A stretch of 64,000 nt of DNA from an uncultured Candidatus Saccharibacteria bacterium. Its GTDB lineage: Bacteria; Patescibacteriota; Minisyncoccia; Phycocordibacterales; DSPV01. Within the stretch, counting starts at the first letter, position 1. Each line of letters opens with the position of its first letter. This document shows positions 1 through 53,929 of the stretch, one piece after another. The stretch lies in NCBI GenBank assembly GCA_964349135.1, contig CAYGFK010000001.1, positions 10,717-74,716 on the forward strand, read 5' to 3'. The position numbers were made by a program, and so were the translations under genes. The notes under the pieces were generated by a model. The model was not told the DNA's origin. It saw only the letters and a list, made by a program, of their open reading frames with translations, and did no database searches.

Positions 1-2
1 CG

Positions 3-1130
3 GGAGATTTGGAACCACTTCTAACCGCTAAGAAACCTCCCGCATCGCTTACACTCGAATATCTTCGCGGAGAGAAACAGATTCCGATACCTGAAAAGAG
101 ACGAGAATCAGAGAAGGGAGCTCTTAAAATCCGTGGAGCGAAAATCTTTAACCTTAAGAATATAAATGTGGAGGTGCCACTTGGTAAACTTGTCTCAGTG
201 ACAGGTGTTTCGGGCTCCGGGAAATCTTCCCTTGTCTATGAGGTGCTCCATAAGAACCTTCTTGCGCGACTTGACCGTAAGTACCGTTCGAACGACACAT
301 TCAATTGCGCAAGTTTTACAGGGTCTGAATATCTCGGCCGGGCTATCTTGATAGACCAGTCGCCGATAGGCCGTACACCGCGTTCGAATCCCGCAACCTA
401 TACGGGAGCGTTTGCGTTCATTCGTGAGTTGTTTGCCGAGACATCGGAGGCCCGGGCACACGGGTGGGGCGCCAGCCGATTCTCCTTTAACGTGCCGACG
501 GCGCGTCGCGGGGGACGTTGTGAGGCCTGTGAAGGGAATGGTGAAATTGCCGTTGAAATGCACTTCTTGCCGACGGTGTACGTCACGTGCGAAGTTTGTG
601 GCGGGAAACGTTTTATGAAAGAGACGCTTGAGGTTACCTTTAAAAAGAAGAATATACATCAAGTTCTTGAAATGACTATCGAAGAGGCCATCGTATTTTT
701 CGAAGATATTCCTGCGATTTATGACCGTCTCAAGACGCTTGATGATGTGGGGCTCGGGTATTTGAAGCTTGGTCAGTCAGCGACGACGCTCTCCGGTGGA
801 GAAGCTCAGCGCGTGAAAATCGCGTCAGAGCTTTATCGTCCGCATCTGCAGAAGACCATCTATCTCCTTGATGAGCCGACTATAGGGTTGCATTATGAGG
901 ATGTTAAGAGACTCATTGAGATATTGCAGAAACTGGTTGACCGAGGAAACACGGTGGTGGTCATTGAACATAATATGGAGGTTATCAAGTCGTCTGATTA
1001 TCTCATTGATATCGGCCCCGAGGGAGGGGATGGCGGCGGCAAGGTTGTGGCAAAAGGTACACCTGAAGAAGTGGCGCAAACCGACACGCATACCGGTAAC
1101 TATCTTCGTAAGACTCTCCGAAAGAAATAA
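3..1130 (+). CDS. uvrA: Excinuclease ABC subunit A, C-terminal part (5' end lies outside the window)
   Basis: Second ABC ATPase domain: Walker A GVSGSGKSS, ABC signature LSGGEAQR, Walker B LLDEPT. C-terminal Zn-finger cysteines CEACEG...CEVCGG. The ORF runs from the window edge. Confidence 0.9.
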   Translation, partial: GDLEPLLTAKKPPASLTLEYLRGEKQIPIPEKRRESEKGALKIRGAKIFNLKNINVEVPLGKLVSVTGVSGSGKSSLVYEVLHKNLLARLDRKYRSNDTFNCASFTGSEYLGRAILIDQSPIGRTPRSNPATYTGAFAFIRELFAETSEARAHGWGASRFSFNVPTARRGGRCEACEGNGEIAVEMHFLPTVYVTCEVCGGKRFMKETLEVTFKKKNIHQVLEMTIEEAIVFFEDIPAIYDRLKTLDDVGLGYLKLGQSATTLSGGEAQRVKIASELYRPHLQKTIYLLDEPTIGLHYEDVKRLIEILQKLVDRGNTVVVIEHNMEVIKSSDYLIDIGPEGGDGGGKVVAKGTPEEVAQTDTHTGNYLRKTLRKK

Positions 1131-1188
1131 CGAACTCCTGGTGATATTTTGACGAGTTATGTGCCTGTGATAGCATGCGGGAAGATGT

Positions 1189-1214
1189 AAACGTGCATGG
1201 TGCACGTTTTTTCT
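1189..1214 (+). terminator. Rho-independent terminator after uvrA
   Basis: Hairpin acgtgcaTGGtgcacgt followed by a T6 run. Confidence 0.6.
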
Positions 1215-1227
1215 TTGAAAGGATATT

Positions 1228-1995
1228 ATGAATACAGAAACAATAGTTCCGTTTGATAACGAAGGTTTACTGACGCTTGCCACACGATGTGGCGGATTCT
1301 ACGAGTGTCCGAAGGACACTGATGGAAAACGGCTCGGACCGCTTGTCGGCTATGCCGGCCGAGATTCTCTTGGCAGGCAGTATGTTGGTGAAGTGTATGT
1401 AAATTTCGCCAAGGTCGAACGACATCCAAAAGCGCTCTCCAGAGTCGCTTCTCTTCTGCTCGACAAGATGCTTGCGCACGATAATGAGTGCATGGACATG
1501 ACATCGGGTTTTTGCGGTGCCCCTGAAGGTGGTAAAGCGCTTGCGCAGGCTTTGTCGGTGCTCACTGGTAAGCAGTACATCTTTCCTGAAAAGAAGATTA
1601 CCGCTCTCGCGACCGATAGTTCACGTGAGCAATCGGAGCTTGTCTGGGGCCGGCATGAGCCCCGTCCTGTAGGTGGGTGGTGGATTGTCGAAGACGTATG
1701 CAATAACTTCTCGACAACATTGAAATTTGTTGACCTGTTTCGTATCTACGGTTCGTTTCCCATTGGCATTATCTGTTTCCTGAATCGGTCGATTAGCACG
1801 GTTGACCGATTATCGGTGAGTATGGATGGGCCCGATATGCCTATCCTCTACGCCGTTCATAAGCCCTTTAGCCAGTATGAGGTCGGGCATATGCATGTGG
1901 AGCGCGATGTATCTATTGGCAACGTCGTCTGGAAGCCGAAAGCGGAGTGGGGTCGCCTTACAGAAGCGGTGGCGAATGCACGCGTGCAACAATAG
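1228..1995 (+). CDS. Type I phosphoribosyltransferase-family protein (orotate PRTase-like)
   Basis: PRPP-binding motif WWIVEDVCNNFSTT matches the VLLVDDVITTGGT pattern. Upstream FCGAPEGGKALAQALS resembles the PyrE FGPAYKGIPIA region. The exact substrate is not assignable. Confidence 0.5.
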   Translation: MNTETIVPFDNEGLLTLATRCGGFYECPKDTDGKRLGPLVGYAGRDSLGRQYVGEVYVNFAKVERHPKALSRVASLLLDKMLAHDNECMDMTSGFCGAPEGGKALAQALSVLTGKQYIFPEKKITALATDSSREQSELVWGRHEPRPVGGWWIVEDVCNNFSTTLKFVDLFRIYGSFPIGIICFLNRSISTVDRLSVSMDGPDMPILYAVHKPFSQYEVGHMHVERDVSIGNVVWKPKAEWGRLTEAVANARVQQ

Positions 1996-3335: not shown

Positions 3336-3689
3336 TCAGATAGAGAGATAGTCGTGGTCGTGTACGTCCCCGACAATCCAGTCAGCCACTTCACTCAAGC
3401 CACATACAAATTTCTCGTGAAGCGGGTGTTTTTGATAACGTTCAAAGTCTCGGTCGCTTCGAAACATTGAGAAGAGGACGAGCTCGTAACCTTTTCTGGT
3501 ATCGAGATTTTTTCCTACTATCCAGAAGAGAAGTCCTTTACTGACTCCGCCACATTCCGCGCCAAGGACGTTTAATTCTGCCGCCACCTCCTCTCTTTTA
3601 ATGAACGTCGTCTCATCTCTGAATTTGATAAGTACGGTGTGCCAGCGTGCGGGCATACGGTTTCCTTTCGTTGATGGAGTTCTCTCCAA
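3336..3689 (-). CDS. Dabb (stress-responsive A/B-barrel) domain protein
   Basis: 117 aa. C-terminal pattern DFERYQKHPLHEKFV...VGDVHDHDY is typical of Dabb/YciI-like proteins. Confidence 0.55.
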   Translation of the reverse strand: MERTPSTKGNRMPARWHTVLIKFRDETTFIKREEVAAELNVLGAECGGVSKGLLFWIVGKNLDTRKGYELVLFSMFRSDRDFERYQKHPLHEKFVCGLSEVADWIVGDVHDHDYLSI

Positions 3690-3819
3690 AAGATTGCCAC
3701 AAATAATCTACGTGTCAATATATTGCAGGGCGAGGAGGTATGGTCAGATGTATCTGGTAACAGTTCTTAGGGTTGCCTAGTTTTATGGTCAGACGACATC
3801 TAAATAGAAAGGGAAGATT

Positions 3820-4275
3820 ATGATTGATACGTTCGACAAAGTCTTTGAGGCGTTTTTGAAAATGTTTTGGGAGCACCACCGGCATTTTTCCGAGTGTAAC
3901 CAAACGGGGCGATGGTCACAGAGTGACATGGAACGCTTCAGTGAAAGTAAGATTCAACTTGAAGGAGCATCTCGCGTTCTCGGCATCAATGCTCGAGACC
4001 AAGCGCTTCTTCAGAGAAGCTTGCCACTCCTCGGCATGATTAATGGAAATAAGAGCGTGTCTATGAAACCACTCTTTGTCACGTTCATGACGTCGGATTC
4101 GCACTACGCATCTTTGAACGGAAGGCGGGCGATGGTGCTTGATATTATCGAGCAAAGATGGCTGTACCGTTTCGGTCTCGCGGTGAGTCTGAAATTCACC
4201 GATGACCAGCGCCAAACGTATGCCGGTATCGACGAGGTCTCGGTTATTCCCGAAGACAGCACACCCCCTCTGTAG
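3820..4275 (+). CDS. Hypothetical protein (151 aa)
   Basis: Strong SD AAAGGGAAG 7 nt before the ATG and its own terminator at 4262-4291. No recognisable domain. Confidence 0.5.
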   Translation: MIDTFDKVFEAFLKMFWEHHRHFSECNQTGRWSQSDMERFSESKIQLEGASRVLGINARDQALLQRSLPLLGMINGNKSVSMKPLFVTFMTSDSHYASLNGRRAMVLDIIEQRWLYRFGLAVSLKFTDDQRQTYAGIDEVSVIPEDSTPPL

Positions 4276-4314: not shown

Positions 4315-4376
4315 GTTGACAATGATATCTAAATATGCTATACTTTTCATCAGATTCAAACCCTCAACAAAGGTAG
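4315..4376 (+). promoter_or_regulatory. Sigma-70-type promoter (TTGACA-17-TATACT) plus conserved leader motif, copy 1
   Basis: TTGACA at 4315-4320, TATACT at 4338-4343, then leader cagATTCAAACCCTCAACAAAGGTAG ending 5 nt before the ATG at 4382. Confidence 0.6.
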
Positions 4377-4381
4377 TTCTT

Positions 4382-4657
4382 ATGAGCAAAACTAGTATCA
4401 CTAAAGGCAGTATCAATCCTCGTGCTTGGAGTAAACCAGATTCTGAGCAGACAAGAACCTCGTGGAGGCTTCAAGTCGTAAGCAAGGTCGACAGCAAGAG
4501 CTTCGTTGGCGGTAGCCTCGACGAACACTCTCTTTCTTCAAAGGAAGAGTGTGAGAAGGTTCTGATTGAAACCGGTCAATTCTGGAAGAAGTTCGGTTGT
4601 GAAATTACGTCCGCCATGGCCGAAGGGCCGGACGGCGAAGTCGTGAAGTTCATCTGA
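4382..4657 (+). CDS. Small hypothetical protein (91 aa), probable member of the small-protein family (C-terminal FGCEITSAMAEGPDGEVV motif)
   Basis: ATG at 4382 follows the conserved leader. The C-terminal motif aligns with ELDCTGSITVYIGGGDGIIEG of the 5148 gene. The track ORF starts at 4316, but the promoter and leader favour 4382. Confidence 0.5.
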   Translation: MSKTSITKGSINPRAWSKPDSEQTRTSWRLQVVSKVDSKSFVGGSLDEHSLSSKEECEKVLIETGQFWKKFGCEITSAMAEGPDGEVVKFI

Positions 4658-4667
4658 ACTTCAGACT

Positions 4668-4705
4668 ATCAGCTCATCGCTTAGGCGGTGAGCTGATTTT
4701 ATTTT
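4668..4705. terminator. Bidirectional terminator (atcagctca...tgagctgat) shared by the convergent genes
   Basis: 8-bp stem hairpin with T-runs on both sides. Confidence 0.55.
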
Positions 4706-5084: not shown

Positions 5085-5144
5085 TTGACGATACGGAGAA
5101 GTGTGTTAGAATCAAGATAGATTCAAACCTCAACAGAAAGGAAG
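5085..5144 (+). promoter_or_regulatory. Promoter (TTGACG-16-TAGAAT) plus conserved leader motif, copy 2
   Basis: Leader tagATTCAAACCTCAACAGAAAGGAAGatt then ATG at 5148. Confidence 0.6.
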
Positions 5145-5147
5145 ATT

Positions 5148-5570
5148 ATGAAGGTGGACATCGAGATAGTTCCTCACATGTCGTGTTCGTATAAACGGGA
5201 TTGTCAGCGCAAGACATCGGTTGCCACGAATGGGACCTACGATGAGAAATTCAGGCAAAGCAAGATTATTGCACGAATTGTCGGTGCCGTAGGGGCCTTT
5301 GTGGAGTTGGATTGCACAGGTTCCATTACGGTATATATCGGTGGAGGTGATGGCATTATCGAAGGCGACCTTAAAGTTGCCAACGAAGAACAGAAATTAT
5401 TCGCCCTCAAGGAATTTCATGACATCGAGTTTGATATGCTCTTGTTGTCGAGCATGCACCCGCAGGCGAAAGTCGAAGTGGAGTTTACGATGCACACAAC
5501 GTTTGCCGAGGAGGAATCCGACACTGAAATCCTAAGAGCGATTGATTGCTCACGAGTACAACCCGCATGA
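5148..5570 (+). CDS. Hypothetical small protein (140 aa), paralog family member A
   Basis: Own promoter, leader and terminator (5578-5620). Shares AF(V/E)(E/Q)LDC(T/N) and an N-terminal M.V.IEI pattern with the 5743 gene. Confidence 0.55.
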   Translation: MKVDIEIVPHMSCSYKRDCQRKTSVATNGTYDEKFRQSKIIARIVGAVGAFVELDCTGSITVYIGGGDGIIEGDLKVANEEQKLFALKEFHDIEFDMLLLSSMHPQAKVEVEFTMHTTFAEEESDTEILRAIDCSRVQPA

Positions 5571-5620: not shown

Positions 5621-5712
5621 ACGTCTTAACTACGGAGTTTTTTACTGCAATGTCGGACATTGCAGATTTATACATTGACACAGGTGGTATTATGTGACAC
5701 TATATAAATAGG

Positions 5713-5739
5713 TTTTGAACCTCAACAAAAGAAAGGAAA
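5713..5739 (+). promoter_or_regulatory. Conserved leader motif, copy 3 (ttgAACCTCAACAAAAGAAAGGAAAG)
   Basis: Directly precedes the ATG at 5743. TTGACA at 5675-5680 lies upstream. Confidence 0.5.
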
Positions 5740-5742
5740 GAT

Positions 5743-6171
5743 ATGCAAACAGTACGCGTTGAAATACCTTCTGTACTCCGACCACATATGGACGGAAACG
5801 GAAGACTTCGGTCCGGTATTGAATACCGAACAAATCGTAAGGCTGACACCAGTGTGTATTACGGCACCAAGGGTTCAGTTGAGTCACGATTCAAACAGCA
5901 TCAGCAGATGGGTGGAGTCCAGGCAATCATTCAGGCGTTCGAGCAACTCGATTGCAACGCCATTGTACGGGTGGAGGTCAAAGGTGCCACTTATCGATTA
6001 GACGTCGACATTTCAGTCGGTCAACCTTTCCAGCGGAAAATAGTCCGTAAGGCACTGGAAGATATTGAGCGCGTGCTCTCCGTTCTTCAGAGATGGCCAG
6101 AAATGGTTGAATTCACTCTAGGGTTTACGGTCAAGACCGTCTATCTTGAAGCTGGACCACGTTGTGTTTGA
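5743..6171 (+). CDS. Hypothetical small protein (142 aa), paralog family member B
   Basis: Tandem to the 5148 gene. Shared motifs MQTVRVEI / QAFEQLDCNAIVRVEVKG. Terminator at 6203-6232. Confidence 0.55.
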   Translation: MQTVRVEIPSVLRPHMDGNGRLRSGIEYRTNRKADTSVYYGTKGSVESRFKQHQQMGGVQAIIQAFEQLDCNAIVRVEVKGATYRLDVDISVGQPFQRKIVRKALEDIERVLSVLQRWPEMVEFTLGFTVKTVYLEAGPRCV

Positions 6172-6267: not shown

Positions 6268-8022
6268 CTATTTCTTTTCGATATTTTCTCTTGAGAGCTT
6301 CTCGGTGATTTTCTCTAGTGAGAGCTCCTCTTTTTCTCCCGAGCGAGATTCGAGCGTGGCAGAATGTGAGCCAGCTTCTTTATCGCCAATGACAAGCCAG
6401 TAAGGAGCTTTTTGGAGTTTTACGTTGCGGACGCGTTTACCGAGAGATTCGTTCGGGTCGGAGAGTTCGGCACGAATGCCGGAGGAGGAGAGAGCGGTGA
6501 GCGCTTCGCGAGCCGCGCTTTCATGTTTCTCGCTGACGGGTAAGATGACCGCTTGCACCGGTGAGAGCCAGAGTGGGAATACTCCCGCATAATGCTCGAT
6601 AAGGATGGCGAGAAATCGTTCGATAGAGCCCATGATGGCGGCGTGGAGCATGACGATACGTTCCTTCTCTCCTTTTTCATTGATACAGGTCAGGTCGAAA
6701 CGTTCGGGCATGTTCATGTCGAGCTGGATAGTAGCCACTTGATGTTCGCGTCCGAGCGCATCTTTTCCAAGGAAGTCGATTTTTGGTCCGTAGAACGCGG
6801 CTTCGCCCGGAGCTTCTTCCGCGACAGCCCCTTTTTCGCTCACAATCTCACGGAGAACGTTTTCGGCATGAGTCCAGGTCTTTTCGTCACCGAGATATTT
6901 TTCCATTTGGTTCTTATCGTGAAGTGAAAGTCGGTAAGAAAGCGAAAAACCGAATGCTCCGTAGAATGTCGAAATGATATCCCAGATGGCGCTGGCCTCG
7001 TCTTTTACTTGTGTGGAGCGACAAAAGACGTGTGCATCATCTTGAGTGATTGACCTGACACGTGAGAGTCCCGCCATTTCGCCAGATTGTTCGTCGCGGT
7101 AGACCTTTGTCGTGTTTGCATATCGTTGCGGAAGTTCGCGGTAGCTCCAGAGTTTGCGTGCGTAAATTTGTGTGTGATGCGGGCAATTCATCGGCTTCAT
7201 GGCAAATTCATGACCTTCGCGCGTGGTAATGCGGAATAGCTCGTCCTGAAATTTTGCCCAGTGACCACTTTTCTCGTAAAGGTCTTTTTTGGTGATATGG
7301 GGTATGTCGACGCGAACGTATCCACGTGCCTTTCGCAGCTCCCAGACGAAACCTTCAAGAAGGTCGCGGACAAGGGTTCCTCGAGGTGTCCAGAGGGGGA
7401 GTCCCGCACCGACAAGTTCGGAGAATATAAAGAGGTCGAGTTCTTGCCCGAGTTTTTTATGGTCGCGTTTTTTCGCTTCCTCCACTTGGTGTTTGTAGCT
7501 CTCGAGTTCATTGGCGCTTTCAAAGGCAAGTCCGTAGATGCGGGTGAGCATTTTATTGTTTTCGTCACCGCGCCAGTAGGCGCCGGCGACACGGTCAAGA
7601 TTCCATGACCCTGATGCAATGTCTTTCGACGGATTGTCAGCGTGACCCCCCCGGCACAAATCAGTGAAATCGCCTGAGGTGTAAAAGGTGAGTTTTTGTC
7701 CGTCTTTGACGATGTCGCCGATGAGTTCGAGTTTATAATGATTACCCGCAAAGTGCCGGCGCGCTTCGTCTTCGGTGACCTCTTTACCTTCAAAGCCCGT
7801 CCACTTTTTTACAAGTTCGCGCATTTTCTGCTCTATCTTCGGTAGTTCTTTTTCACTGACGGCAAGATTGTCAAAGTCGTAATAGAACCCATTGTCGATT
7901 GCCGGACCGATAGTCGGTATCGCGTCAGGGTAGAGTTCACGTACGGCAGCGGCGAGCAGGTGTGCAAGCGAGTGGCGTTTATGGTCGAGCGAGTTGTTTT
8001 TCATGGCACTAACTATAGACAT
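6268..8022 (-). CDS. thrS: Threonyl-tRNA synthetase (584 aa, N-terminal TGS region shortened)
   Basis: Editing-domain histidines (HRHSLAHLLAAAV), a class II catalytic core and a C-terminal anticodon-binding domain are all recognisable. Confidence 0.93.
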   Translation of the reverse strand: MSIVSAMKNNSLDHKRHSLAHLLAAAVRELYPDAIPTIGPAIDNGFYYDFDNLAVSEKELPKIEQKMRELVKKWTGFEGKEVTEDEARRHFAGNHYKLELIGDIVKDGQKLTFYTSGDFTDLCRGGHADNPSKDIASGSWNLDRVAGAYWRGDENNKMLTRIYGLAFESANELESYKHQVEEAKKRDHKKLGQELDLFIFSELVGAGLPLWTPRGTLVRDLLEGFVWELRKARGYVRVDIPHITKKDLYEKSGHWAKFQDELFRITTREGHEFAMKPMNCPHHTQIYARKLWSYRELPQRYANTTKVYRDEQSGEMAGLSRVRSITQDDAHVFCRSTQVKDEASAIWDIISTFYGAFGFSLSYRLSLHDKNQMEKYLGDEKTWTHAENVLREIVSEKGAVAEEAPGEAAFYGPKIDFLGKDALGREHQVATIQLDMNMPERFDLTCINEKGEKERIVMLHAAIMGSIERFLAILIEHYAGVFPLWLSPVQAVILPVSEKHESAAREALTALSSSGIRAELSDPNESLGKRVRNVKLQKAPYWLVIGDKEAGSHSATLESRSGEKEELSLEKITEKLSRENIEKK

Positions 8023-8076
8023 TTTCGGGCAAAAAGAAAAGCGCGACCCGTGGGGTCGCGCTTCGTATTTTTTGAG

Positions 8077-8418
8077 TCAGTTGTGAAAGAGGCAGAGAAA
8101 CGCGCTCACTTTGCTTGGGACAATGGTCGGTCCGTCCTGATGCCAATGCCCGGTTCCTTCATCGAATCGGAGTCGTTTTGCTGATACGAGGAGTGAGAGA
8201 CCCTCCGTCTGTACATCGAAATGGAGGGGACTGAATGCTTTCAGTAGTGGAAGCAAGTCCTTCCGGCAGGCTTTCTTTGCGACATGTTTTGAGGTCGCAC
8301 GTTGAAATCTTACATTTCGTTCGAGAGGTACTATCTCAAATACCCCTTTTTGTTTCTTAGGAATGACGCGGAGCACATTGTCTCCGACAATGACCACCAA
8401 TCCGACAGTTGTTTTCAT
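8077..8418 (-). CDS. Hypothetical protein (113 aa)
   Basis: ORF between dnaE and thrS with a downstream hairpin plus T-run at about 8035-8075. No confident domain. Confidence 0.4.
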   Translation of the reverse strand: MKTTVGLVVIVGDNVLRVIPKKQKGVFEIVPLERNVRFQRATSKHVAKKACRKDLLPLLKAFSPLHFDVQTEGLSLLVSAKRLRFDEGTGHWHQDGPTIVPSKVSAFLCLFHN

Positions 8419-8517
8419 GCATGGCCTTTGCGTTAGAGGTTTCAGGGGACGTCTACTATCAGATTATACTTCAGTGCTTTGATGTCAAGAAAAACTGTTT
8501 AGAGCACTGTGATAAAA

Positions 8518-35180: not shown

Positions 35181-35345
35181 AGGGCAATTGTAGCGTGCCT
35201 AGAGTCGTTTCGCAACGTGGAACTTGCATTATATTTTAATGTATGCTATACTCCTTGCGTCGTAGTATTTCTCGAATGTCGGCTGTGAGTTTTCACGCAC
35301 GAGTTTGAGGAGGTCGTGCTATGAAAGTTACAACAAAGAATACTC

Positions 35346-35618
35346 ATGGCTAAGAAATTGTATGTCGGTAACCTCTCATGGGGTACTGACGATGACAGCT
35401 TGCGCAGCGCCTTCGCTGAAGCCGGTTCCGTGTTGTCCGCTCAGGTCCTCAAGGACCGAATGACGGGCCGCTCACGTGGATTCGGATTCGTCGAAATGGA
35501 AGATGCGGATGCTCAGAAAGCGATTGAGATGCTTGATGGCAAGGATCTTGATGGCCGAAACATTCGTGTCAATGAAGCGAAGCCGCTCGCCGAGCGACCA
35601 GCTCGCCGGGAGTTCTAA
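35346..35618 (+). CDS. RRM-type RNA-binding protein
   Basis: RNP-2 LYVGNL and RNP-1 RGFGFVEM. Terminator at 35628-35662. Confidence 0.88.
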   Translation: MAKKLYVGNLSWGTDDDSLRSAFAEAGSVLSAQVLKDRMTGRSRGFGFVEMEDADAQKAIEMLDGKDLDGRNIRVNEAKPLAERPARREF

Positions 35619-37795: not shown

Positions 37796-38176
37796 CTATT
37801 TGTTAGTAAGCTTGGATATTCCTCTTTCAACTTCAATATGGCAATTCTTACAGAGAAGAATGCATTTTCGTGCTTCTTTGAGAATGCTTTTCCACGAATA
37901 ACTCAACCCCTTCACACTCAAAGAAAATTCTTTCTGTTTTCGGTTTAAGTGATGGAAATCAAGGGCGCCTGCATATTTTTTGTAACCACAAATTTGACAT
38001 TCCCCTCCGAACAAACTGACAAGTCTTTCTTTCTTTTTTCTCCTGTTATTAATAACCCATTCGGACGCGCACTTTCCGCATCGATAGGTCCCATCTTTCC
38101 TTGGAAAATGAGATGATTTCCCGTGATGTCGACAATGTTTAATCATGCGCAAATTATAACACTTGGTGTTAAGCAT
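37796..38176 (-). CDS. HNH endonuclease, free-standing
   Basis: C..C...HH...C..C.H core (CQICGY...FHHLNRK...CKNCH). Start set at MLNTK; the longer track start (38272) would overlap the tRNA 5' exon. Confidence 0.7.
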   Translation of the reverse strand: MLNTKCYNLRMIKHCRHHGKSSHFPRKDGTYRCGKCASEWVINNRRKKKERLVSLFGGECQICGYKKYAGALDFHHLNRKQKEFSLSVKGLSYSWKSILKEARKCILLCKNCHIEVERGISKLTNK

Positions 38177-38232
38177 CTGTAGGCACTGGACTTCATTGAT
38201 ACTCTGGAATAGAATTGTTGTGTTCGTTATAT

Positions 38233-38503
38233 TCCGGGATAGCTCAGCGGTAGAGCAGTCGCCTGTAAACATATTTGCAGCTTTTCACCGAAAGGTGGAT
38301 TGAAAAACTTCGGGATAACGGTGGAGCCCCTCTGGGGTAATACCGTGGGAACCCTTACTAATTAATTAGTTGGGGGCGCCGTAGAGACTAGATACCGAAG
38401 CACCTAAGGTTTTCATAACTATGGTGGTGATATAGTCCACGCCATTGGTAACAATGGATAACGTGTAAGCGATTGGTCGCAGGTTCGAATCCTGCTCCCG
38501 GAG
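38233..38503 (+). tRNA. tRNA-Asn(GUU) interrupted by a 199-nt group I intron (38267-38465) in the anticodon loop, between nt 35 and 36
   Basis: 5' exon TCCGGGATAGCTCAGCGGTAGAGCAGTCGCCTGT and 3' exon TAAGCGATTGGTCGCAGGTTCGAATCCTGCTCCCGGAG. Spliced product has loop CUGUUAA. Close to B. subtilis tRNA-Asn. The intron carries Azoarcus-like P7/P9 elements (GTAGAGACTAGA, CACCTAAGG, CTATGG, ATAGTCC) and ends in G. Confidence 0.8.
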
Positions 38504-38519
38504 TTGCCAAAATTAATAT

Positions 38520-38545
38520 GCCCCGCAAGGGGCGTTTTAATTTTG
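38520..38545 (+). terminator. Rho-independent terminator after the tRNA
   Basis: gccccGCAAggggc followed by GTTTTAATTTT. Confidence 0.6.
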
Positions 38546-38663
38546 TTGCAACTCCGAGGAGAGGACGCAAAAGTCTTTGCGTCCGTCAGGATTCGAAAGG
38601 GTCGTTGGGTTCCCGTTCGTGAAGCGAATGGGATACGACCACCTGCGACGGTAGTCGAGAATT

Positions 38664-38679
38664 CTCCTGCTCCCGGAGT
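38664..38679 (+). repeat. 16-nt direct repeat of the tRNA-Asn 3' end (TCCTGCTCCCGGAGTT; first copy 38490-38505)
   Basis: Exact match read from sequence. It lies in a 290-bp structured noncoding stretch with a GGACGCAAAAGTCTTTGCGTCC hairpin and two CAGGATTCGAAAG elements. Confidence 0.75.
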
Positions 38680-38771
38680 TAGAGTAAGTTTAGCCCCGTT
38701 GCGAGAGCAATGGGGATTTACTTATCTCTCTGCGGGGCAGGATTCGAAAGACGGAGAATACAGTCAACGTA

Positions 38772-38842
38772 TTGACCAAAAGTTCTAGATGTAGTACTAT
38801 ATTGCTAGTTCCAGAGTCACTCAAAACCTCAAAGAAAGGAAG
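38772..38842 (+). promoter_or_regulatory. Promoter (TTGACC-17-TACTAT) plus conserved leader motif, copy 4
   Basis: Leader cactCAAAACCTCAAAGAAAGGAAGtatcc then a TTG start at 38848. Confidence 0.55.
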
Positions 38843-38847
38843 TATCC

Positions 38848-39489
38848 TTGAAAACATACATATCGTTAGTGCTTGCGCTGTCAGTGTCGTTGTTGTTTGG
38901 CGACGATTCCGACAGAGTTTCAAGTCCAGGAATACTCTTGGGCTACAAAGGCGTCGGACTCGATGGCTACACGTTCAGCCATGATACGCACCCCAACGAC
39001 CCTTTCCTGATGAATTCAGGGCAACCGGGCTCAGCAGGGGAAACCAAACTCGATGACCCGTTGCACTTCTTGGCCGTTGGCCTGACGTATGACGTGCCAC
39101 TGGGTAAGTCATGGACCGTCGCCATAGGAGCTGGCGGTTTATTTATCCCAAACCGGGATGAGCATCAAAATGATAACGATACGCGCCCGGCAGAAAATGG
39201 CGCATTCGTATATTCTGAAGCAAATTTTGGCGTATTCGCGACGGTCGGCTTGTCGTATGATGTCACCAAACGTTGTTACGTTGGCATCGAGGGACAGGTT
39301 GCCGGAATCTTTGTCGAAAGCGGATGGGACCGTTTTAATTCGGATGAGAGAGTTCATTCGAGTACAGAATGGGTTCCGTCTATTGGACCAAAAATTGGTT
39401 ACTGGGTTAATGAACACTTTCTCATGGAGGTAGGCGTTCAGTTTGGCCACTCGGTTGGTGGGACGGTATCGCTCAGATATCGATTTTGA
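38848..39489 (+). CDS. Secreted OmpW-like 8-strand beta-barrel protein (213 aa, TTG start)
   Basis: N-terminal signal peptide MKTYISLVLALSVSLLFG. Alternating hydrophobic beta-strand pattern. C-terminus ...VSLRYRF matches the OmpW-family terminal GYRF/aromatic-end barrel signal. Confidence 0.5.
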   Translation: MKTYISLVLALSVSLLFGDDSDRVSSPGILLGYKGVGLDGYTFSHDTHPNDPFLMNSGQPGSAGETKLDDPLHFLAVGLTYDVPLGKSWTVAIGAGGLFIPNRDEHQNDNDTRPAENGAFVYSEANFGVFATVGLSYDVTKRCYVGIEGQVAGIFVESGWDRFNSDERVHSSTEWVPSIGPKIGYWVNEHFLMEVGVQFGHSVGGTVSLRYRF

Positions 39490-41845: not shown

Positions 41846-42074
41846 TGAAACATTCACATCCACAAAAGAAATCGTACGGTCACGGCTGGGTCTACAAGAA
41901 GACCTTGTCGCCGATTTTGGTATGTTCTTGTGGCTCTAAATATCTAAAGACTCGCCCCAGTCAGACAAAATGCGTCAGGTGCTTTACGAGGAGTTAGCCC
42001 TCCTCTGCAAGGTCCGACCTCGCCGTAGAATTGACGTATTTCTACAACCATGGTACTCTCCTCTGGAGTCAATC

Positions 42075-42096
42075 TGAACCTTCAACGAAAGAGACA
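42075..42096 (+). promoter_or_regulatory. Conserved leader motif, copy 5 (ctGAACCTTCAACGAAAGAGacatct)
   Basis: Precedes the ATG of the MDMQSVRV... gene. Local coordinates are approximate (+/-1). Confidence 0.45.
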
Positions 42097-42099
42097 TCT

Positions 42100-42546
42100 A
42101 TGGACATGCAAAGTGTTAGGGTCGGCAAAATCCACTACGCGGGTTCGTCTGGTCGTCGTCAGTATCCAGTCATCTACAAAGTATTTGGACAGCAGATTAT
42201 ATTTACCGGTCTCAAGGTGGAATGTCCTTCAACCAGACATTCCGCCACAGAAATTGTCTGGCTTATTGCCACACAGGAGGGAATTATCCCGGCGACAGGA
42301 ATGTTTTTTGACCTCCAGACGCGCTTGGGGTACCCAGAGCTTCGGCCGGGGAAATTCATCTTTAGCTTACTTGTGCTTGAGCAGTTCGGGTCCGGCGTCC
42401 GAGTAGTCGGTTGGAAAGAAGGAGTATGCCACCCCTTGGTTCTCCAGCACTTCCAGGGTTACATCAGCGATTCCGACTTGGGAGTTTCCCTGCAGAACGT
42501 AAGTCCAAGTCAAGGTGTCTATCAGCCAATACAGGCGTGCGAATAA
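42100..42546 (+). CDS. Hypothetical protein (148 aa), third member of the small-protein paralog family
   Basis: Start at the internal Met of the track ORF, directly after the leader motif. Shares N-terminal MQSVRV and the QQIIFTGLKVEC block with 5743 (MQTVRV; QAIIQAFEQLDC). Confidence 0.45.
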   Translation: MDMQSVRVGKIHYAGSSGRRQYPVIYKVFGQQIIFTGLKVECPSTRHSATEIVWLIATQEGIIPATGMFFDLQTRLGYPELRPGKFIFSLLVLEQFGSGVRVVGWKEGVCHPLVLQHFQGYISDSDLGVSLQNVSPSQGVYQPIQACE

Positions 42547-43260: not shown

Positions 43261-43354
43261 TGGAGGTGTTTGAACATTTAAACTTTTCTTTTCTGTCTTT
43301 TGTTCTATACTCTCGAGAGAATAAATTCCGGTCTTTGCCGGAGAAAGGAAGATT

Positions 43355-43576
43355 ATGGATTCAATAAATTCGCTTGCTAATGTAGTGGCCGTAGCAGCCA
43401 AGATGAGAGGGGACCCGCTCGTAATGATGGATTTCATCAGGGATGCACTCGAACGTATTCGTGATGGTAAGGAGGTTGTAGAGGAATATCCCGCAACAGG
43501 AAACCCTTCATTGCGTGATGTGTATAAGATTGCCGCGCGTCTTCAACAGGAAGCGGCTACAGCTGAAGCCGTATAA
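43355..43576 (+). CDS. Small hypothetical protein (73 aa)
   Basis: SD GAAAGGAAG. Terminator at 43580-43608 (actgccgaCCAAGGtcggcag plus T6) with the same stem as the 6203 terminator. Confidence 0.4.
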   Translation: MDSINSLANVVAVAAKMRGDPLVMMDFIRDALERIRDGKEVVEEYPATGNPSLRDVYKIAARLQQEAATAEAV

Positions 43577-50214: not shown

Positions 50215-52095
50215 TTATGTAAAGCTCTCCGGGTCTACCGATAATTCTGCCGATGGGGGAAGTGAGCGGAGTATTGAGAGAATTCGTTCATTGGGCCACT
50301 CTTTTGCGGGTATCTTCATGACGCCGGATAGACCAGATTTGTTCTTTGCTTGTTTAAGAAAGACCGGGAAGATGTCTATTTCTTGAGGTGCAAGCGCTTG
50401 GACAAGTGCGTGCATCTCTTTACTGATTACCTCTTTCTGGCCGGAAAGGGTTATCTTTATCGGCACGGAAAATGGGGGATAGAGTAGTGTTTTGCGTAGT
50501 GCCAATTCGCCCTGAAAGAACGAGCTCAGGCTTCCTTCCGCAAAACTTGCAAGCGCATGAGAGTTTTCTGTTCGTGTTTGAATGATAAATTCTCGTTCCG
50601 CGAATTCAATTAAGTTTCCAAGGAGATAGCTGACACGTTCGTTTATGCGAAAATCAGGTATTGAGAAGAGTTCGTCAATCGAGGCGATAGCAACTGTACC
50701 CACGGGAGCTAAGAGATACGGGAGCATGAATTCGGTTCCAACAAGAACACTTCCGGGGGAGTTATAAAATTTCTCGATAAGCGCTTTCGCCTGTTTTCTG
50801 TTGGTTACCGATTCAGAATCCATTCTGATGACGACAAGGTCGTCGAAGACCTCATGGAGTTCTCGTTCGACGAGTTCAGTCCCGATGCCGAACGTGGCGA
50901 GTTTCCAACTGTTGCAGGAGGCGCACCTAATCGACGCATCTATTTTTTCTCCGCACCGGTGACAGAGGAAAAACCGGTTTTTTTCAGAAGTTCCGTGAAG
51001 TACGGTCGGGTGACCACATACGCTACAGGAAAGCAGGGTGCCACAATCTCCGCATATGGTTGTTGGGGCGAGCCCTTTTCTCCCGGCAAATACAATGACA
51101 CGGTCTGCAGAGGCTCGAGCGGTACGTATCTTTTCAATGAGTTCATCCGAGAGTGCGCGAGGCACACCTTTCAGACTTGGTTTATACGGCTTCATGTCGA
51201 TAAGGGAGACTCGAGATTTGGTGCTACGTCTCCATTTCAGCGGGACGAGTTCATCGATTTCATGCTCGTAGTACCGTTCAATAAGCGCGCTTGATAAAAT
51301 GGTATCTCCGAAAATGAGGCGTGCATGGGCGTGCCGGGCGTACGTACGTATGAAGAAACGGAAATCGATGAAAGGTCGGTTTCGTTGTTTATATGACGCA
51401 GAATTCTCGCGCTCTACGATAATGGTCCCGGCGCGGTCTGCGGCAATGCCGATGAATCCGGGAGTTGAGACCATAAGGAGCGGATGCGTTTCTTTATATA
51501 TTCGTTCGATATCAAGTGTCAGTGCGCGTAGTGTCTTTTTGCTGTGCAGCAGGAGCGAATACTCTTCGATACCTTTTGAGAGTTTTTCGAGAGCCGTTTC
51601 TGCTTCTTGTATCGTCGGGACGAGGAAGAGCACAGACTCTTTATGCCTGAATGCTTCGCGGATGAGAGAGCGGTATTGGCTGAACCTCTCCTCACTGTCG
51701 TTTTGGATTGCCTGCAGGGTCGGACGGGCAGTAGGCGCCGGCTCATGACGGGCTTCCGGGATTTTTTTGATGAGATTGAGCGGAAGAAGCGCGGTAAGTG
51801 TCGCTCCGAACGGAGCCGCATAGAATCGAGAGGTCTCCCGGGCTGCGGTAATGAAGGCGTCGCTTGAGAAACGCGGAGAGATGATTTTCCCAACTTTCTT
51901 CATTGAGAATGACGACGATTTAATTGACGTCTTTTCTTCACGGGCCTTTTTTGCCCCGATAACGAGTCCTGTCACGCTCTTCGAGCGAAGAGGGATATGC
52001 ACAAGACTGCCGATAGGTATTTCCTGCGCGCTGAAATACGTGAGGGTGTCGGCCCACACGCTTTTCTCGAGCGGGATGACCTCTATAATATGCAT
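50215..52095 (-). CDS. priA: Primosomal protein N' (replication restart helicase)
   Basis: Helicase core and Zn-binding CGDCGTLLSCSVCGHP...CHRCG...CASCNS. Confidence 0.9.
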   Translation of the reverse strand: MHIIEVIPLEKSVWADTLTYFSAQEIPIGSLVHIPLRSKSVTGLVIGAKKAREEKTSIKSSSFSMKKVGKIISPRFSSDAFITAARETSRFYAAPFGATLTALLPLNLIKKIPEARHEPAPTARPTLQAIQNDSEERFSQYRSLIREAFRHKESVLFLVPTIQEAETALEKLSKGIEEYSLLLHSKKTLRALTLDIERIYKETHPLLMVSTPGFIGIAADRAGTIIVERENSASYKQRNRPFIDFRFFIRTYARHAHARLIFGDTILSSALIERYYEHEIDELVPLKWRRSTKSRVSLIDMKPYKPSLKGVPRALSDELIEKIRTARASADRVIVFAGRKGLAPTTICGDCGTLLSCSVCGHPTVLHGTSEKNRFFLCHRCGEKIDASIRCASCNSWKLATFGIGTELVERELHEVFDDLVVIRMDSESVTNRKQAKALIEKFYNSPGSVLVGTEFMLPYLLAPVGTVAIASIDELFSIPDFRINERVSYLLGNLIEFAEREFIIQTRTENSHALASFAEGSLSSFFQGELALRKTLLYPPFSVPIKITLSGQKEVISKEMHALVQALAPQEIDIFPVFLKQAKNKSGLSGVMKIPAKEWPNERILSILRSLPPSAELSVDPESFT

Positions 52096-53618
52096 TAGAG
52101 CTCTCGCAAAATCTTAATTTTCGCACCAAGCTTTGCGAGTCGCTCGGCGATGTCTTCGTAACCGCGATTGATGGAATAGATATTTCTGAGAATCGATGTC
52201 CCTTCTGCACCGAGCATACCGATGAGTACGATGGCTGCGGGGCGGAGCGCCGGAGGGCAGATTATCTCATTTGCTTTGAGTTTTGTCGGACCGTTGATAA
52301 AGACGCGGTGAGGGTCGGCGAGAATAATGTCGGCACCGAGGCGGTCAAGTTCTTTGTAATGAATAGCGCGCGCTTCGTAGACCCAATCATGAATGAAGGT
52401 TTGTCCTTTCGCTTGAGTTGCGATGATGGCGAAGAAGGGAAGGTTGTCTATGTTCAGACCGGGGTATGGTCGAGCTTCGATTTTTTCGTCGAGTGCGGTG
52501 AGTTTTGAAGGAAATGTCTCAATGTCGACAAGCGCGGTCTGTCCGTTCTCAGACATATACGGTTTGCTCTTTTTGAATCGAAATCCCATCTTCTTGAGTT
52601 TCAGGAGCTCAAGCTCAAGAAAATGTATCGGACAGCGTTTTATGGTCAGGTTTGATTTGGTCACGATAGCAACCGCAAGCATGAACATGGATTCAATAGG
52701 GTCTTCGCTTAGGTGGTAGCGCGCCTTCACCTCAATATCCGGTTTGCCGTGCACCACGAGCGTGGTTGTGCCTATTCCGTCTACCTGTACGCCGAGCTCA
52801 TGAAGGAAGAAACAGAGGTCCTGAATTTGATAGTTCGCCGATGCGTATTTGATGGTTGTGGTTCCTTTAAACCGTGCGGCCGCCATCAGGACGTTTTCGG
52901 TTACCGTATCGCCTGATTCGTAGAGAATGATTTCACGACTCTTTGGTTTGCCGACCGTGACTCGGTGACCGGCACCAGAGGTTTTAATAGAAACGCCAAG
53001 GTTTTCAAGAGCGTAGAAATGCGGGCGCACTGTGCGTTTGCCAAGCTTACAACCTCCCGATTGCGGAAGAAAGAAGCTTTTTGCGATATGCATCAAAGGC
53101 CCGATGAGCATGATGACACTCCGTGTTTTTTGCGCTGATGCCACATTGATTGTAGAAAGTGAGAGTTTAGACGGCGGTTTGATGATAAGGTCGCTGTTTA
53201 CCCATCGAACTGAAACACCGATAGATTGCAGAACTTCAATCATGCGATACACCTCTTCTATTCTCGGCACGCTTACGAGCGTTGTTTCTCCTTTGTTGAG
53301 GAGTGCGGCGCAAATAAGACCCATCGCGGCATTTTTCGATGTCTTTGTGGTGATAGTTCCTGAGAGTGGGTGTCCGCCTTCGATTTCGAGATTGATGGCA
53401 CCATCGCCGATATGAATGATGTCTTTATTGAGAATGTTGCTGATGCGGGAGAGGAGGGAGGCGCTGACGTTTTGCGTTCCACTCTCGATGCGAGCGACAG
53501 CGCTCTGTGTCGTACCCAGACGCTTTGCAAACGCGTCTTGAGTGACACCACGCTCTTCGCGGAGATTTTTAATCAAGGAACCCAGCACAGAGAGCTGTTT
53601 GTTAGGTTTAGTAGGCAT
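52095..53618 (-). CDS. murA: UDP-N-acetylglucosamine 1-carboxyvinyltransferase fused to an N-terminal XRE-family HTH domain
   Basis: The first ~70 aa form a Cro/C1 HTH (LREERGVTQDAFAKRLGTTQSAVARIESG). The rest aligns end-to-end with MurA, including active-site Cys (GGCKLG) and C-terminal IYSINRGYEDIAERLAKLGAKI. The ATG at 53618 follows an in-frame TTG. Confidence 0.85.
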   Translation of the reverse strand: MPTKPNKQLSVLGSLIKNLREERGVTQDAFAKRLGTTQSAVARIESGTQNVSASLLSRISNILNKDIIHIGDGAINLEIEGGHPLSGTITTKTSKNAAMGLICAALLNKGETTLVSVPRIEEVYRMIEVLQSIGVSVRWVNSDLIIKPPSKLSLSTINVASAQKTRSVIMLIGPLMHIAKSFFLPQSGGCKLGKRTVRPHFYALENLGVSIKTSGAGHRVTVGKPKSREIILYESGDTVTENVLMAAARFKGTTTIKYASANYQIQDLCFFLHELGVQVDGIGTTTLVVHGKPDIEVKARYHLSEDPIESMFMLAVAIVTKSNLTIKRCPIHFLELELLKLKKMGFRFKKSKPYMSENGQTALVDIETFPSKLTALDEKIEARPYPGLNIDNLPFFAIIATQAKGQTFIHDWVYEARAIHYKELDRLGADIILADPHRVFINGPTKLKANEIICPPALRPAAIVLIGMLGAEGTSILRNIYSINRGYEDIAERLAKLGAKIKILREL

Positions 53619-53665
53619 CAAGACATTATAGCATAGATGCTATATCTTGCATATCTGGAATCTGG
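53619..53665 (-). promoter_or_regulatory. Putative promoter with an overlapping 18-bp palindromic operator (TATAGCAT-AG-ATGCTATA, 53627-53644) immediately upstream of HTH-murA
   Basis: Minus-strand reading is ATGCAA-17-TATAAT-GTCTTG-ATG. The palindrome covers the spacer and the -10 box. Confidence 0.45.
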
Positions 53666-53929
53666 AGGTAGATTGACAGTAACACCGTATCATGTTATTA
53701 TTGCATATAGTCGGGTCAGAACCTAGTAGAGCTCTCGAATGGTCATAACCCGAAATTCACATTATTGGTTCGTCACGCCAATGTCTCCTGAGTTTAATCC
53801 AATGCGATAACCAGACGAGGTACATTGAGGCCGACGCTGTCCGCACCATACCGTGTGTGACACCGGCCTCTTTTTATTTTTTGGTAACTGGACGCACTTC
53901 ACTAAAAGCTATAAGCTAGAAGCTACTCT

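Follow-up and report, generated by a model that had tools for sequence, protein, structure and literature searches.

We analyzed 64,000 nucleotides (nt) of contig CAYGFK010000001.1 (positions 10,717 to 74,716 of the forward strand, assembly GCA_964349135.1) from an uncultured Candidatus Saccharibacteria bacterium, a member of the candidate phyla radiation (CPR); this whole stretch is referred to as the window. Five start codons in the window are preceded by a common leader element, which consists of AACC(N0-1)TCAA and, after it, a Shine-Dalgarno (SD) sequence of the GAAAGGA type. The element recurs beyond chance, stands in register with the start codon, lies in unstructured leaders and is independent of gene family. 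From these properties we infer, tentatively and with somewhat less than even confidence, that this C/A-rich, start-associated element, specific to the genome, may be a translational enhancer or a standby sequence, which would act through S1 or standby binding on the minority of messenger RNAs (mRNAs) that are leadered in a largely leaderless genome.

Copies of the leader element

Reading of the window sequence placed the core of the element at 4359 (copy A), 5126 (B), 5718 (C), 38825 (D) and 42077 (E), all on the plus strand, ahead of ATG 4382, ATG 5148, ATG 5743, TTG 38848 and ATG 42100, respectively. All five copies named in the original prediction, which had been made without database searches, were thus found where it had put them. 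The consensus of the 5' extension is (T/C)NRAACC(N)TCAAC(R), directly 5' of the SD, whose own consensus in the motif-bearing leaders is (A)GAAAGGA(A/G)G. The full consensus had been proposed for all five copies; it holds for copy B, while A, C, D and E deviate and only the eight core positions, AACC(N0-1)TCAA, are invariant. The core AACC(N)TCAAC is G-free and rich in C and A.

Leader B (5119-5147, +), the reference copy and the sole match of the full consensus without mismatches in the window, reads TAGAAT-caagat-AGATTCAAACCTCAACA-GAAAGGAAG (SD)-att-ATG with the core at 5126-5133, and follows a promoter at 5085-5112 (TTGACG, 16-nt spacer with TG, TAGAAT; 10 of 12 consensus matches). Leader A (4352-4381, +) reads TATACT-tttcatc-AGATTCAAACCCTCAACA-AAGGTAG (SD)-ttctt-ATG; its core, AACC-C-TCAA (4359-4367), has one additional C and its SD (AAGGTAG) is weaker relative to the consensus first proposed, and its promoter at 4316-4344 (+) matches the sigma-70 consensus at 11 of 12 positions (TTGACA, 17-nt spacer with TG, TATACT). 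Leader C (5710-5742, +; TATATA-aat-AGGTTTTGAACCTCAACAAAAG-AAAGGAAAG-at-ATG, core at 5718-5725) departs from the consensus in its 5' part (AGGTTTTGAACC), and the boxes upstream of it, TTGACA at 5675-5680 and TATATA at 5701-5706, have non-canonical spacing and were not listed by the promoter scan.

The promoters of the two distal copies were read from the sequence: TTGACC, 17-nt spacer, TACTAT for D (38772-38800, +) and TTGACG, 17-nt spacer with TG, TACTCT for E (42031-42059, +). Leader D (38808-38847, +) reads TACTAT-attgcta-GTTCCAGAGTCACTCAAAACCTCAA (..GAGTCACTCAAAACCTCAA)-AGAAAGGAAG-tatcc-TTG, with the core at 38825-38832, and leader E (42066-42099, +) reads TACTCT-cctctg-GAGTCAATCTGAACCTTCAACG-AAAGAGA-catct-ATG, with the core AACC-T-TCAA at 42077-42085 and a weak SD (GAAAGAGA). 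In addition to the core common to all copies, D and E have a 5' likeness of their own (GAGTCA[C/A]TC..AACC); outside the core the similarity extends over 18 nt between leaders A and B and over about 32 nt between D and E.

Two degenerate copies surfaced from a crude gene call with upstream read-out, both on the minus strand. Copy F (3657-3686; AGAACTCCATCAACGAAAGGAAACCGT, CTCCATCAACGAAAGGAAA) precedes ATG 3656 with its TCAA at -18, and copy G (8419-8455; ..CCTGAAACCTCTAACGCAAAGGCCATGC, AACCTCTAACGCAAAGG) precedes ATG 8418 downstream of a perfect TATAAT at 8468-8463; copy G is the only further match of the leader profile in the window (8.8 bits). All seven copies, five clear and two degenerate, are oriented in the sense direction of their genes. 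The trinucleotide ACA occurs in A, B and C (TCAACA), while D has TCAAAG and E, F and G have AACG; the only ACA of leader E sits 3' of its SD, outside the motif.

Register, recurrence and structure

Used as a regular expression, the core has 15 matches in the window, as compared with 5.3 +/- 2.4 in dinucleotide shuffles, and all five intergenic matches sit between a -10 box and an SD. The gapped 8-mer is carried by five of the 12 window leaders and by at most three in any of 5000 composition-preserving leader shuffles, which bears out the earlier claim that the half of the element outside SD pairing does not recur by chance. A plain 14-mer with three mismatches gave 12 window matches versus 7.7 expected, which is not significant alone; the signal resides in the core plus its context and not in the bare 14-mer.

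In the seven copies, TCAA stands at -18, -18, -21, -19, -18, -18 and -18 relative to the start codon, whereas the -10 box lies anywhere from about 11 to 24 nt away from the core. A register set by the start codon rather than by the promoter ties the element to the ribosome-binding site (RBS), and the translational enhancer that had been offered as one option gains support in the form of an RNA-level, translation-linked role. The 3' end of the core lies 1-6 nt ahead of the SD purine run in seven of seven copies. As had also been noted, the motif lies within short leaders (about 27-40 nt) that start some 7 nt past sigma-70-type -10 boxes.

Folding of each leader together with its start, a check that had been proposed along with the element, showed that all five are less structured than their shuffles (z of +0.76, +1.06, +0.96, +1.22 and +1.37 for A to E, respectively). 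A search of the whole window against Rfam, both at the gathering threshold and at E<0.05, gave no match at the leaders; short and less structured than shuffles, these do not qualify as a riboswitch, attenuator, thermometer or other structured cis-regulatory leader. Sequestration of the anti-SD, or secondary structure, through the ACCUC of the motif was rejected, given that pairing is limited to 3-4 bp and that the leaders are, as stated, less structured than their shuffles. Two further candidates were also discarded: a promoter of the extracytoplasmic function (ECF) sigma type read from GAACC, whose spacing would put transcription start within genes, and a likeness of AGATTCAAACCTC to the antisense of the transfer RNA (tRNA) T-arm (GGATTCGAACC), which is restricted to copies A and B and was judged coincidental.

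The register also bears on a DNA-level explanation, according to which the motif would be an asymmetric repressor operator, resembling a stoperator, at about +8 to +25 of strong promoters, or part of a methylation-sensitive GANTC site. Copies A, B, D and E, four of the five clear ones, do lie just 3' of near-consensus promoters, for which repression might be needed; like stoperators, the site is asymmetric and points in the direction of transcription (PMC3203893); and the same four leaders contain GATTC or GAGTC (CcrM/HinfI-type sites at 4353, 5120, 38814 and 42066), 5-10 nt 5' of the core. Yet the motif has no dyad symmetry, and GANTC is missing in copy C and neither enriched nor depleted in the window (286 sites versus about 250-316 expected), on which grounds a methylation site was rejected. 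Because the register follows the start codon and the motif also occupies promoter-less intergenic RBS positions in two phage-like contigs described below (L154 and L220), we regard an operator acting on DNA as decidedly unlikely.

Genes behind the element

The genes that follow the motif are small and mostly orphan, and their context is chromosomal, with UvrC, ThrRS (threonyl-tRNA synthetase) and DnaE as neighbours. Gene A (4382-4657, +; 91 amino acids, aa) belongs to no Pfam family and is followed by a terminator at 4668-4697. Gene B (5148-5570, +; 140 aa) has no homolog among 5.8 billion proteins and is a weak paralog of gene C (5743-6171, +; 142 aa), with which it stands in tandem. Gene D (38848-39489, +; 213 aa) starts with TTG, has a signal-peptide-like N-terminus and has six homologs with 42-45% identity. 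The prediction had listed an OmpW-like gene among the five; what was found for gene D is a weak beta-barrel outer membrane protein match in Pfam that stays below the cut-off (E 0.011). Gene E (42100-42546, +; 148 aa) has no Pfam family and is unrelated to B. The degenerate copies precede a Dabb-domain gene (3336-3656, -; ATG 3656) and a gene of 113 aa (gene G, 8077-8418, -; ATG 8418); the latter ends in a terminator-like hairpin at 8023-8076 (-). Terminator-like hairpins were seen for units A, B and C, which, judged by these signals, look like independent small transcription units with their own promoter and terminator.

The prediction had counted four family paralogs among these genes. Only B and C are detectably related (25% identity, E 2e-11), and the proteins of A, D and E showed no relationship to B/C or to one another and could not be aligned. 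Paralogy was therefore rejected as the cause of the shared motif: since the genes are unrelated and B is an orphan, the conservation of the motif is not a by-product of protein homology.

The same genes are relevant to a possible origin of the motif as a relic of common descent, that is, of a promoter-leader-RBS cassette copied with or before fast-evolving small genes and either not yet decayed or merely tolerated as G-poor. Such an origin fits the tandem paralogs B and C, the likeness of leaders A and B and of leaders D and E beyond the core, the restriction of the motif to this species, and the absence of any global privilege of the 10-mer (see below). It also fits the grouping of the motif genes at 3.3-8.5 kb and 38.8-42.5 kb, two regions that are variable and somewhat richer in AT. 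Against it, the promoter spacers, the segments between -10 box and motif and the coding sequences are by now no more alike than random sequence, yet the eight core positions and the start-codon register are kept in five copies. An invariant core in register amid randomised flanks indicates selection, and we consider descent by itself an unlikely explanation.

Leadered and leaderless genes in the window

In about 18 open reading frames (ORFs) with 60 aa or more, the start codon follows a strong -10 box (TAnnnT, with 5 or 6 of 6 positions matching) at a distance of 5-9 nt; among them are those starting at ATG 5048(-), 8004(-), 12395, 14419, 17646, 28999, 37759(-), 43655, 53618(-) and 54957. They include the genes for ThrRS (TATAGT, 7 nt, ATG 8004), a DUF4260 protein and a MurA fusion, and the same pattern from -10 box to start was seen in relatives (loci L086, L089 and L092). 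The position of these ORFs right behind -10 boxes, here and in relatives alike, suggests that leaderless mRNAs are widespread in this Paceibacterota genome and probably account for most first-in-operon (housekeeping) genes. The leadered, SD-dependent genes are a distinct minority and mostly small accessory or orphan ORFs. To our knowledge, translation signals of CPR/Patescibacteria are almost unstudied, and our literature search found no paper that ties leaderless mRNAs, SD usage and CPR together.

Two of the leaderless-type starts have features of their own. The start of ThrRS is ATG 8004 in the NCBI record, behind its own TATAGT box, and the longer ORF from ATG 8022 would thus be an over-extension. 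The MurA fusion (52095-53618, -; 507 aa) has, within a single ORF, an HTH_3 domain of the XRE type (E 4e-14) fused to an enolpyruvyl transferase that resembles MurA (PF00275, E 9e-48), and a leaderless-type start (TATAAT, 6 nt, ATG).

Inspection of about 12 leader-bearing starts in the window found five with the clean motif and two or three with degenerate forms of it. Three leadered genes, starting at ATG 3820, 43075 and 43355, have equally good SDs and no clean motif. Two of them had been cited before as strong SDs (at 3805 and 43340) that lack the element: the clean motif is indeed absent from both, while ATG 3820 carries a diverged look-alike (CATCTAAATAGAAAGGGAAGATTATG). The leader of ATG 43075 measures 17 nt, and that of ATG 43355 (gene J; 43306-43354, +), which follows a TATACT promoter, contains a CCGG..CCGG hairpin and no AACC-TCAA. 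The string from RBS to start, AGAAAGGAAGATTATG, is the same in B (5136-5150) and J (43340-43357) and nearly the same at ATG 3820 (AGAAAGGGAAGATTATG, 3804-3822), which suggests that SD, spacer and start form one strongly preferred unit. The GGAAG would suit a CUUCC anti-SD rather than CCUCC.

This selective use is among the points that speak for a target site at which a post-transcriptional regulator would act in trans. The regulator, a G/U-rich small RNA (sRNA) similar to GcvB (approximately UGUUGAGGUU) or else an RNA-binding protein, would attach to the mRNA directly 5' of the SD and control this set of small genes jointly. Only some leadered genes have the motif, and the three above lack it despite near-identical SDs; its sequence is conserved beyond composition (five of 12 leaders versus the shuffle maximum of three), it is placed exactly where GcvB pairs with its targets (PMC3879156), and the window encodes an RRM-type RNA-binding protein (35346-35618). 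Against it, the 64-kb window holds no complementary sRNA candidate such as had been envisaged: there is no intergenic complement to the motif, the best duplex partners all lie within coding regions, and Rfam found no sRNA. Nor do the genes form the coherent regulon that had been expected, being unrelated, functionally incoherent and mostly orphan, and in L154, a phage-like contig with no relation to the window, the identical motif forms the RBS context of all genes. A regulator target is compatible with an enhancer, given that GcvB masks C/A-rich enhancers; taken by itself, we find it doubtful.

A separate observation concerns the start of the RRM-type gene. A 10-codon upstream ORF (uORF; 35321-35353, +; MKVTTKNTHG) with a strong GAGGAGG SD overlaps the SD-less start (cATGgctaa) of this 90-aa gene, an arrangement that looks like translational coupling or leader-peptide control.

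Distribution in relatives, metagenomes and viral contigs

Relatives were compared through the ThrRS gene (6268-8022, -), which is of the Patescibacteria/Paceibacterota type and has at most 74% identity in the nearest other genomes. The comparison set consisted of 80 ThrRS loci from GTDB genomes, with about 30 CPR genomes among them. C/A-rich runs before the SD are the rule both in relatives and at the loci of gene D homologs (aaacaaacagaaag, aacaaaccaaggag): the C/A-rich property is common to relatives, and the exact sequence is genome-specific. Contigs of the same species from other samples are 100% identical to the window and thus carry no polymorphism information. A profile hidden Markov model (HMM) of the seven copies, run over 1.46 Mb, returned its training sites only.

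A metagenome scan for AACCTCAACA followed by SD and ATG found at least 120 loci; among the matches listed, most are true gene starts, in very diverse taxa of 30-68% GC, and this result is not interpretable as enrichment. In viral contigs, AACCTCAACA-N0-2-GAAAGGAA occurred at 13 loci, as compared with 13, 15 and 12 for three composition-matched permutations, and the 10-mer has no global preference before GAAAGGAA there. The possibility that the motif is merely the preferred RBS context, named at the outset as what would refute a special role, agrees with these viral counts and with the C/A-rich habit of relatives; it does not account for the exact sequence being kept within this genome, with three leadered genes lacking it.

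Three contigs among the loci found have several copies each. In L154 (Ga0207893_1006343, 1-1610, minus strand; GC content 0.49), six copies lie within 1.6 kb: AACCTCAACA(A)GAAAGG(A/T)AA stands ahead of each of six consecutive small ORFs, with 26 identical nt in three copies. L218, which is related to L154, has three copies, and L220, an IMG/VR contig with a GC content of 0.39, has four, along with variants such as TAACCCCTAACAGGAGG. None of about 40 control loci has three or more copies of its own control motif plus SD. The ORFs of the window showed no similarity to the proteins of L154, L218 and L220; in PHROGs, matches (phage-type genes) were found for L220 only and none for L154. The copies in all three contigs precede tandem genes with no promoters between them, which shows the unit to be functional as the context of an RBS on polycistronic mRNAs.

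Repetition of this kind is what one would expect if the motif paired with ribosomal RNA (rRNA), as was once proposed for the epsilon element of phage T7. The partner would be an extended 16S tail (..CCUCCUUUCU-GUUGAGGUU) or an exposed platform helix, and motif and SD together would make an extended SD of about 20 nt. The motif adjoins the SD without a gap, and the AACCTCAACAGAAAGGAA unit recurs ahead of genes in phage-like contigs that are independent of each other and differ in GC content (L154 and L220), as a partner in the host machinery predicts; the control loci lack comparable repetition. On the other hand, the canonical 16S rRNA 3' end, ..CCUCCUUUCU, is already taken by the SD, the ACCUC of the motif is identical to the anti-SD and not complementary to it, and the viral contigs show no global enrichment. 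The 16S genes in the fetched loci are flavobacterial only, and the window contains none. We consider rRNA pairing very unlikely.

A related idea is that AACCUCAAC plus GAAAGGA is a sequence-specific start-associated sequence, common to this CPR bacterium, L154/L218 and L220, which would be read by the translation apparatus of one host clade and would license SD-led initiation amid mostly leaderless mRNAs. What reads it might be an extension of the 16S peculiar to the lineage, a helix of the platform or a dedicated factor. Although we rate this as quite unlikely, it would, if true, provide a possible host-linking signature for CPR phages.

A putative translational enhancer or standby sequence

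Taken together, the start-codon register, the lack of G and of structure, the independence of gene family and the promoter-less use in other contigs make a translational enhancer the best supported reading. Transcription would proceed from sigma-70-type promoters, near consensus in A, B, D and E and less canonical in C, F and G. On the mRNA, the C/A-rich stretch would lie just outside the SD/anti-SD duplex, which would already occupy the very 3' terminus of 16S rRNA; with the textbook 16S end taken in place of the organism's own, the motif appears to be beyond normal anti-SD reach. The stretch would keep the site single-stranded and serve as a landing surface for the 30S subunit (S1, platform region), thereby marking the genes that rely on SD-led initiation, a minority made up mostly of small accessory or orphan ORFs. 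The identity of the core probably has two sources, namely descent from duplicated expression cassettes, as the extra 5' likeness of A/B and D/E and the B/C paralogs would suggest, and purifying selection on the element; alternatively, its invariance might come from a sequence-specific partner (an sRNA, a protein or rRNA).

Several observations weigh against the enhancer. The motif is absent from the 80 ThrRS neighbourhoods, where the regular expression had three unrelated matches, none before a start codon. The syntenic small genes in the variable region between ThrRS and UvrC of the three closest relatives lack it, as do the loci of the gene D homologs, and the usage in the genome itself was seen over 64 kb plus 4.8 kb (L001). 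The 13 viral loci do not exceed those of the permutations, and three leadered genes with equally good SDs do without a clean motif. Finally, a generic requirement for an unstructured C/A-rich stretch leaves the invariance of the eight core positions in five copies unexplained.

The window suggests two tiers of genes: leaderless-looking housekeeping operons, and small accessory or orphan genes with a strong promoter, a C/A-rich leader and a strong SD. If the element is a real enhancer, it would amount to a compact expression module in a lineage so far out of reach of manipulation, and its presence would flag orphan genes that are highly expressed.

Other RNA features of the window

A tRNA gene at 38215-38510 (+) is apparently split by a group I intron at 38257-38458 (RF00028; 50.8 bits versus a gathering score of 50, E approximately 6e-10), a match found only in the E-value mode of the Rfam search. 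The tRNA-like halves flank the intron, the 3' half being GGTCGCAGGTTCGAATCCTGCTCCCGGAGTTGCCA, and ARAGORN reported no tRNA in the window. The adjoining ORF at 37796-38272 (-) has a weak HNH endonuclease match (E 5e-4). Directly after the intron-containing tRNA lies a candidate structured RNA of about 220 nt (38545-38765, +; minimum free energy of -101 kcal/mol, z -6.3), in which the tRNA 3' end recurs both as an inverted and as a direct repeat (GAATTCTCCTGCTCCCGGAGTT, 38659-38680); it has no match in Rfam and was not called as a transfer-messenger RNA by ARAGORN. A candidate noncoding RNA at 53665-53890 (+) has a promoter (TTGACA-17-TATTAT), about 180 nt free of ORFs and an intrinsic terminator (GACACCGGCCTC plus a T-run); it folds better than 200 of 200 shuffles (z -3.2) and has no match in Rfam.

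Comparison with known systems

The epsilon enhancer of phage T7 gene 10, reportedly described by Olins and Rangwala in 1989 as UUAACUUUA upstream of the SD, has been proposed to pair with nt 458-466 of the 16S rRNA. It is likewise a short, G-free element immediately 5' of the SD (AAC-UUUAA-GAAGGAG versus AACCUCAACAGAAAGGA), but it belongs to the leader of a single phage gene and is not a repeated genomic element.

The stoperators of Cluster A mycobacteriophages are asymmetric 13-bp repressor sites in intergenic regions (PMC3203893). They share with the present motif that they are short, asymmetric, oriented and present in multiple copies in short intergenic regions; they differ in acting on transcription and having no register with start codons, which the motif keeps.

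Closer in arrangement are the start-associated sequences (SAS) of Cluster K mycobacteriophages, 13 bp long (GGGATAGGAGCCC), located 3-7 bp before start codons and without a known function (PMC3203893). Both are asymmetric repeats in a single orientation that include or abut the SD, stand a few nt before the starts of only some genes, which are unrelated and for the most part non-structural or orphan, and are conserved beyond what rRNA pairing explains, with a presumed role in translation; L154, L218 and L220 use the present motif in the manner of SAS. The sequence is different, however, no counterpart of the extended SAS with inverted repeats (ESAS) was found here, and SAS occur in phage genomes, whereas the motif lies in a bacterial chromosome with a promoter for each gene. 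If sequence-specific, the motif would be a chromosomal counterpart of these still unexplained phage sequences.

For yifK, dppA and oppA of Salmonella and E. coli, experiments have established that C/A-rich (ACA) elements immediately upstream of the SD enhance translation; these elements are also the pairing sites of the sRNA GcvB, which silences them by masking (PMC3879156). The present motif resembles them in its place directly 5' of the SD, in being C/A-rich, G-free and unstructured, in serving several unrelated mRNAs of one genome, and, for copies A, B and C (CAACA), in containing ACA. It differs from them in its exact core of 8-9 nt (AACC-TCAAC), where the enterobacterial enhancers have loosely placed ACA triplets, and in copies D and E, which have no ACA within the motif; moreover, no GcvB-like sRNA was found here, the host is a CPR bacterium and the enhancer activity is putative. 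In summary, the motif is a well-supported but local regularity whose most likely explanation is an ordinary one, a genome-specific instance, from a lineage that has been little studied, of a type of element already known.

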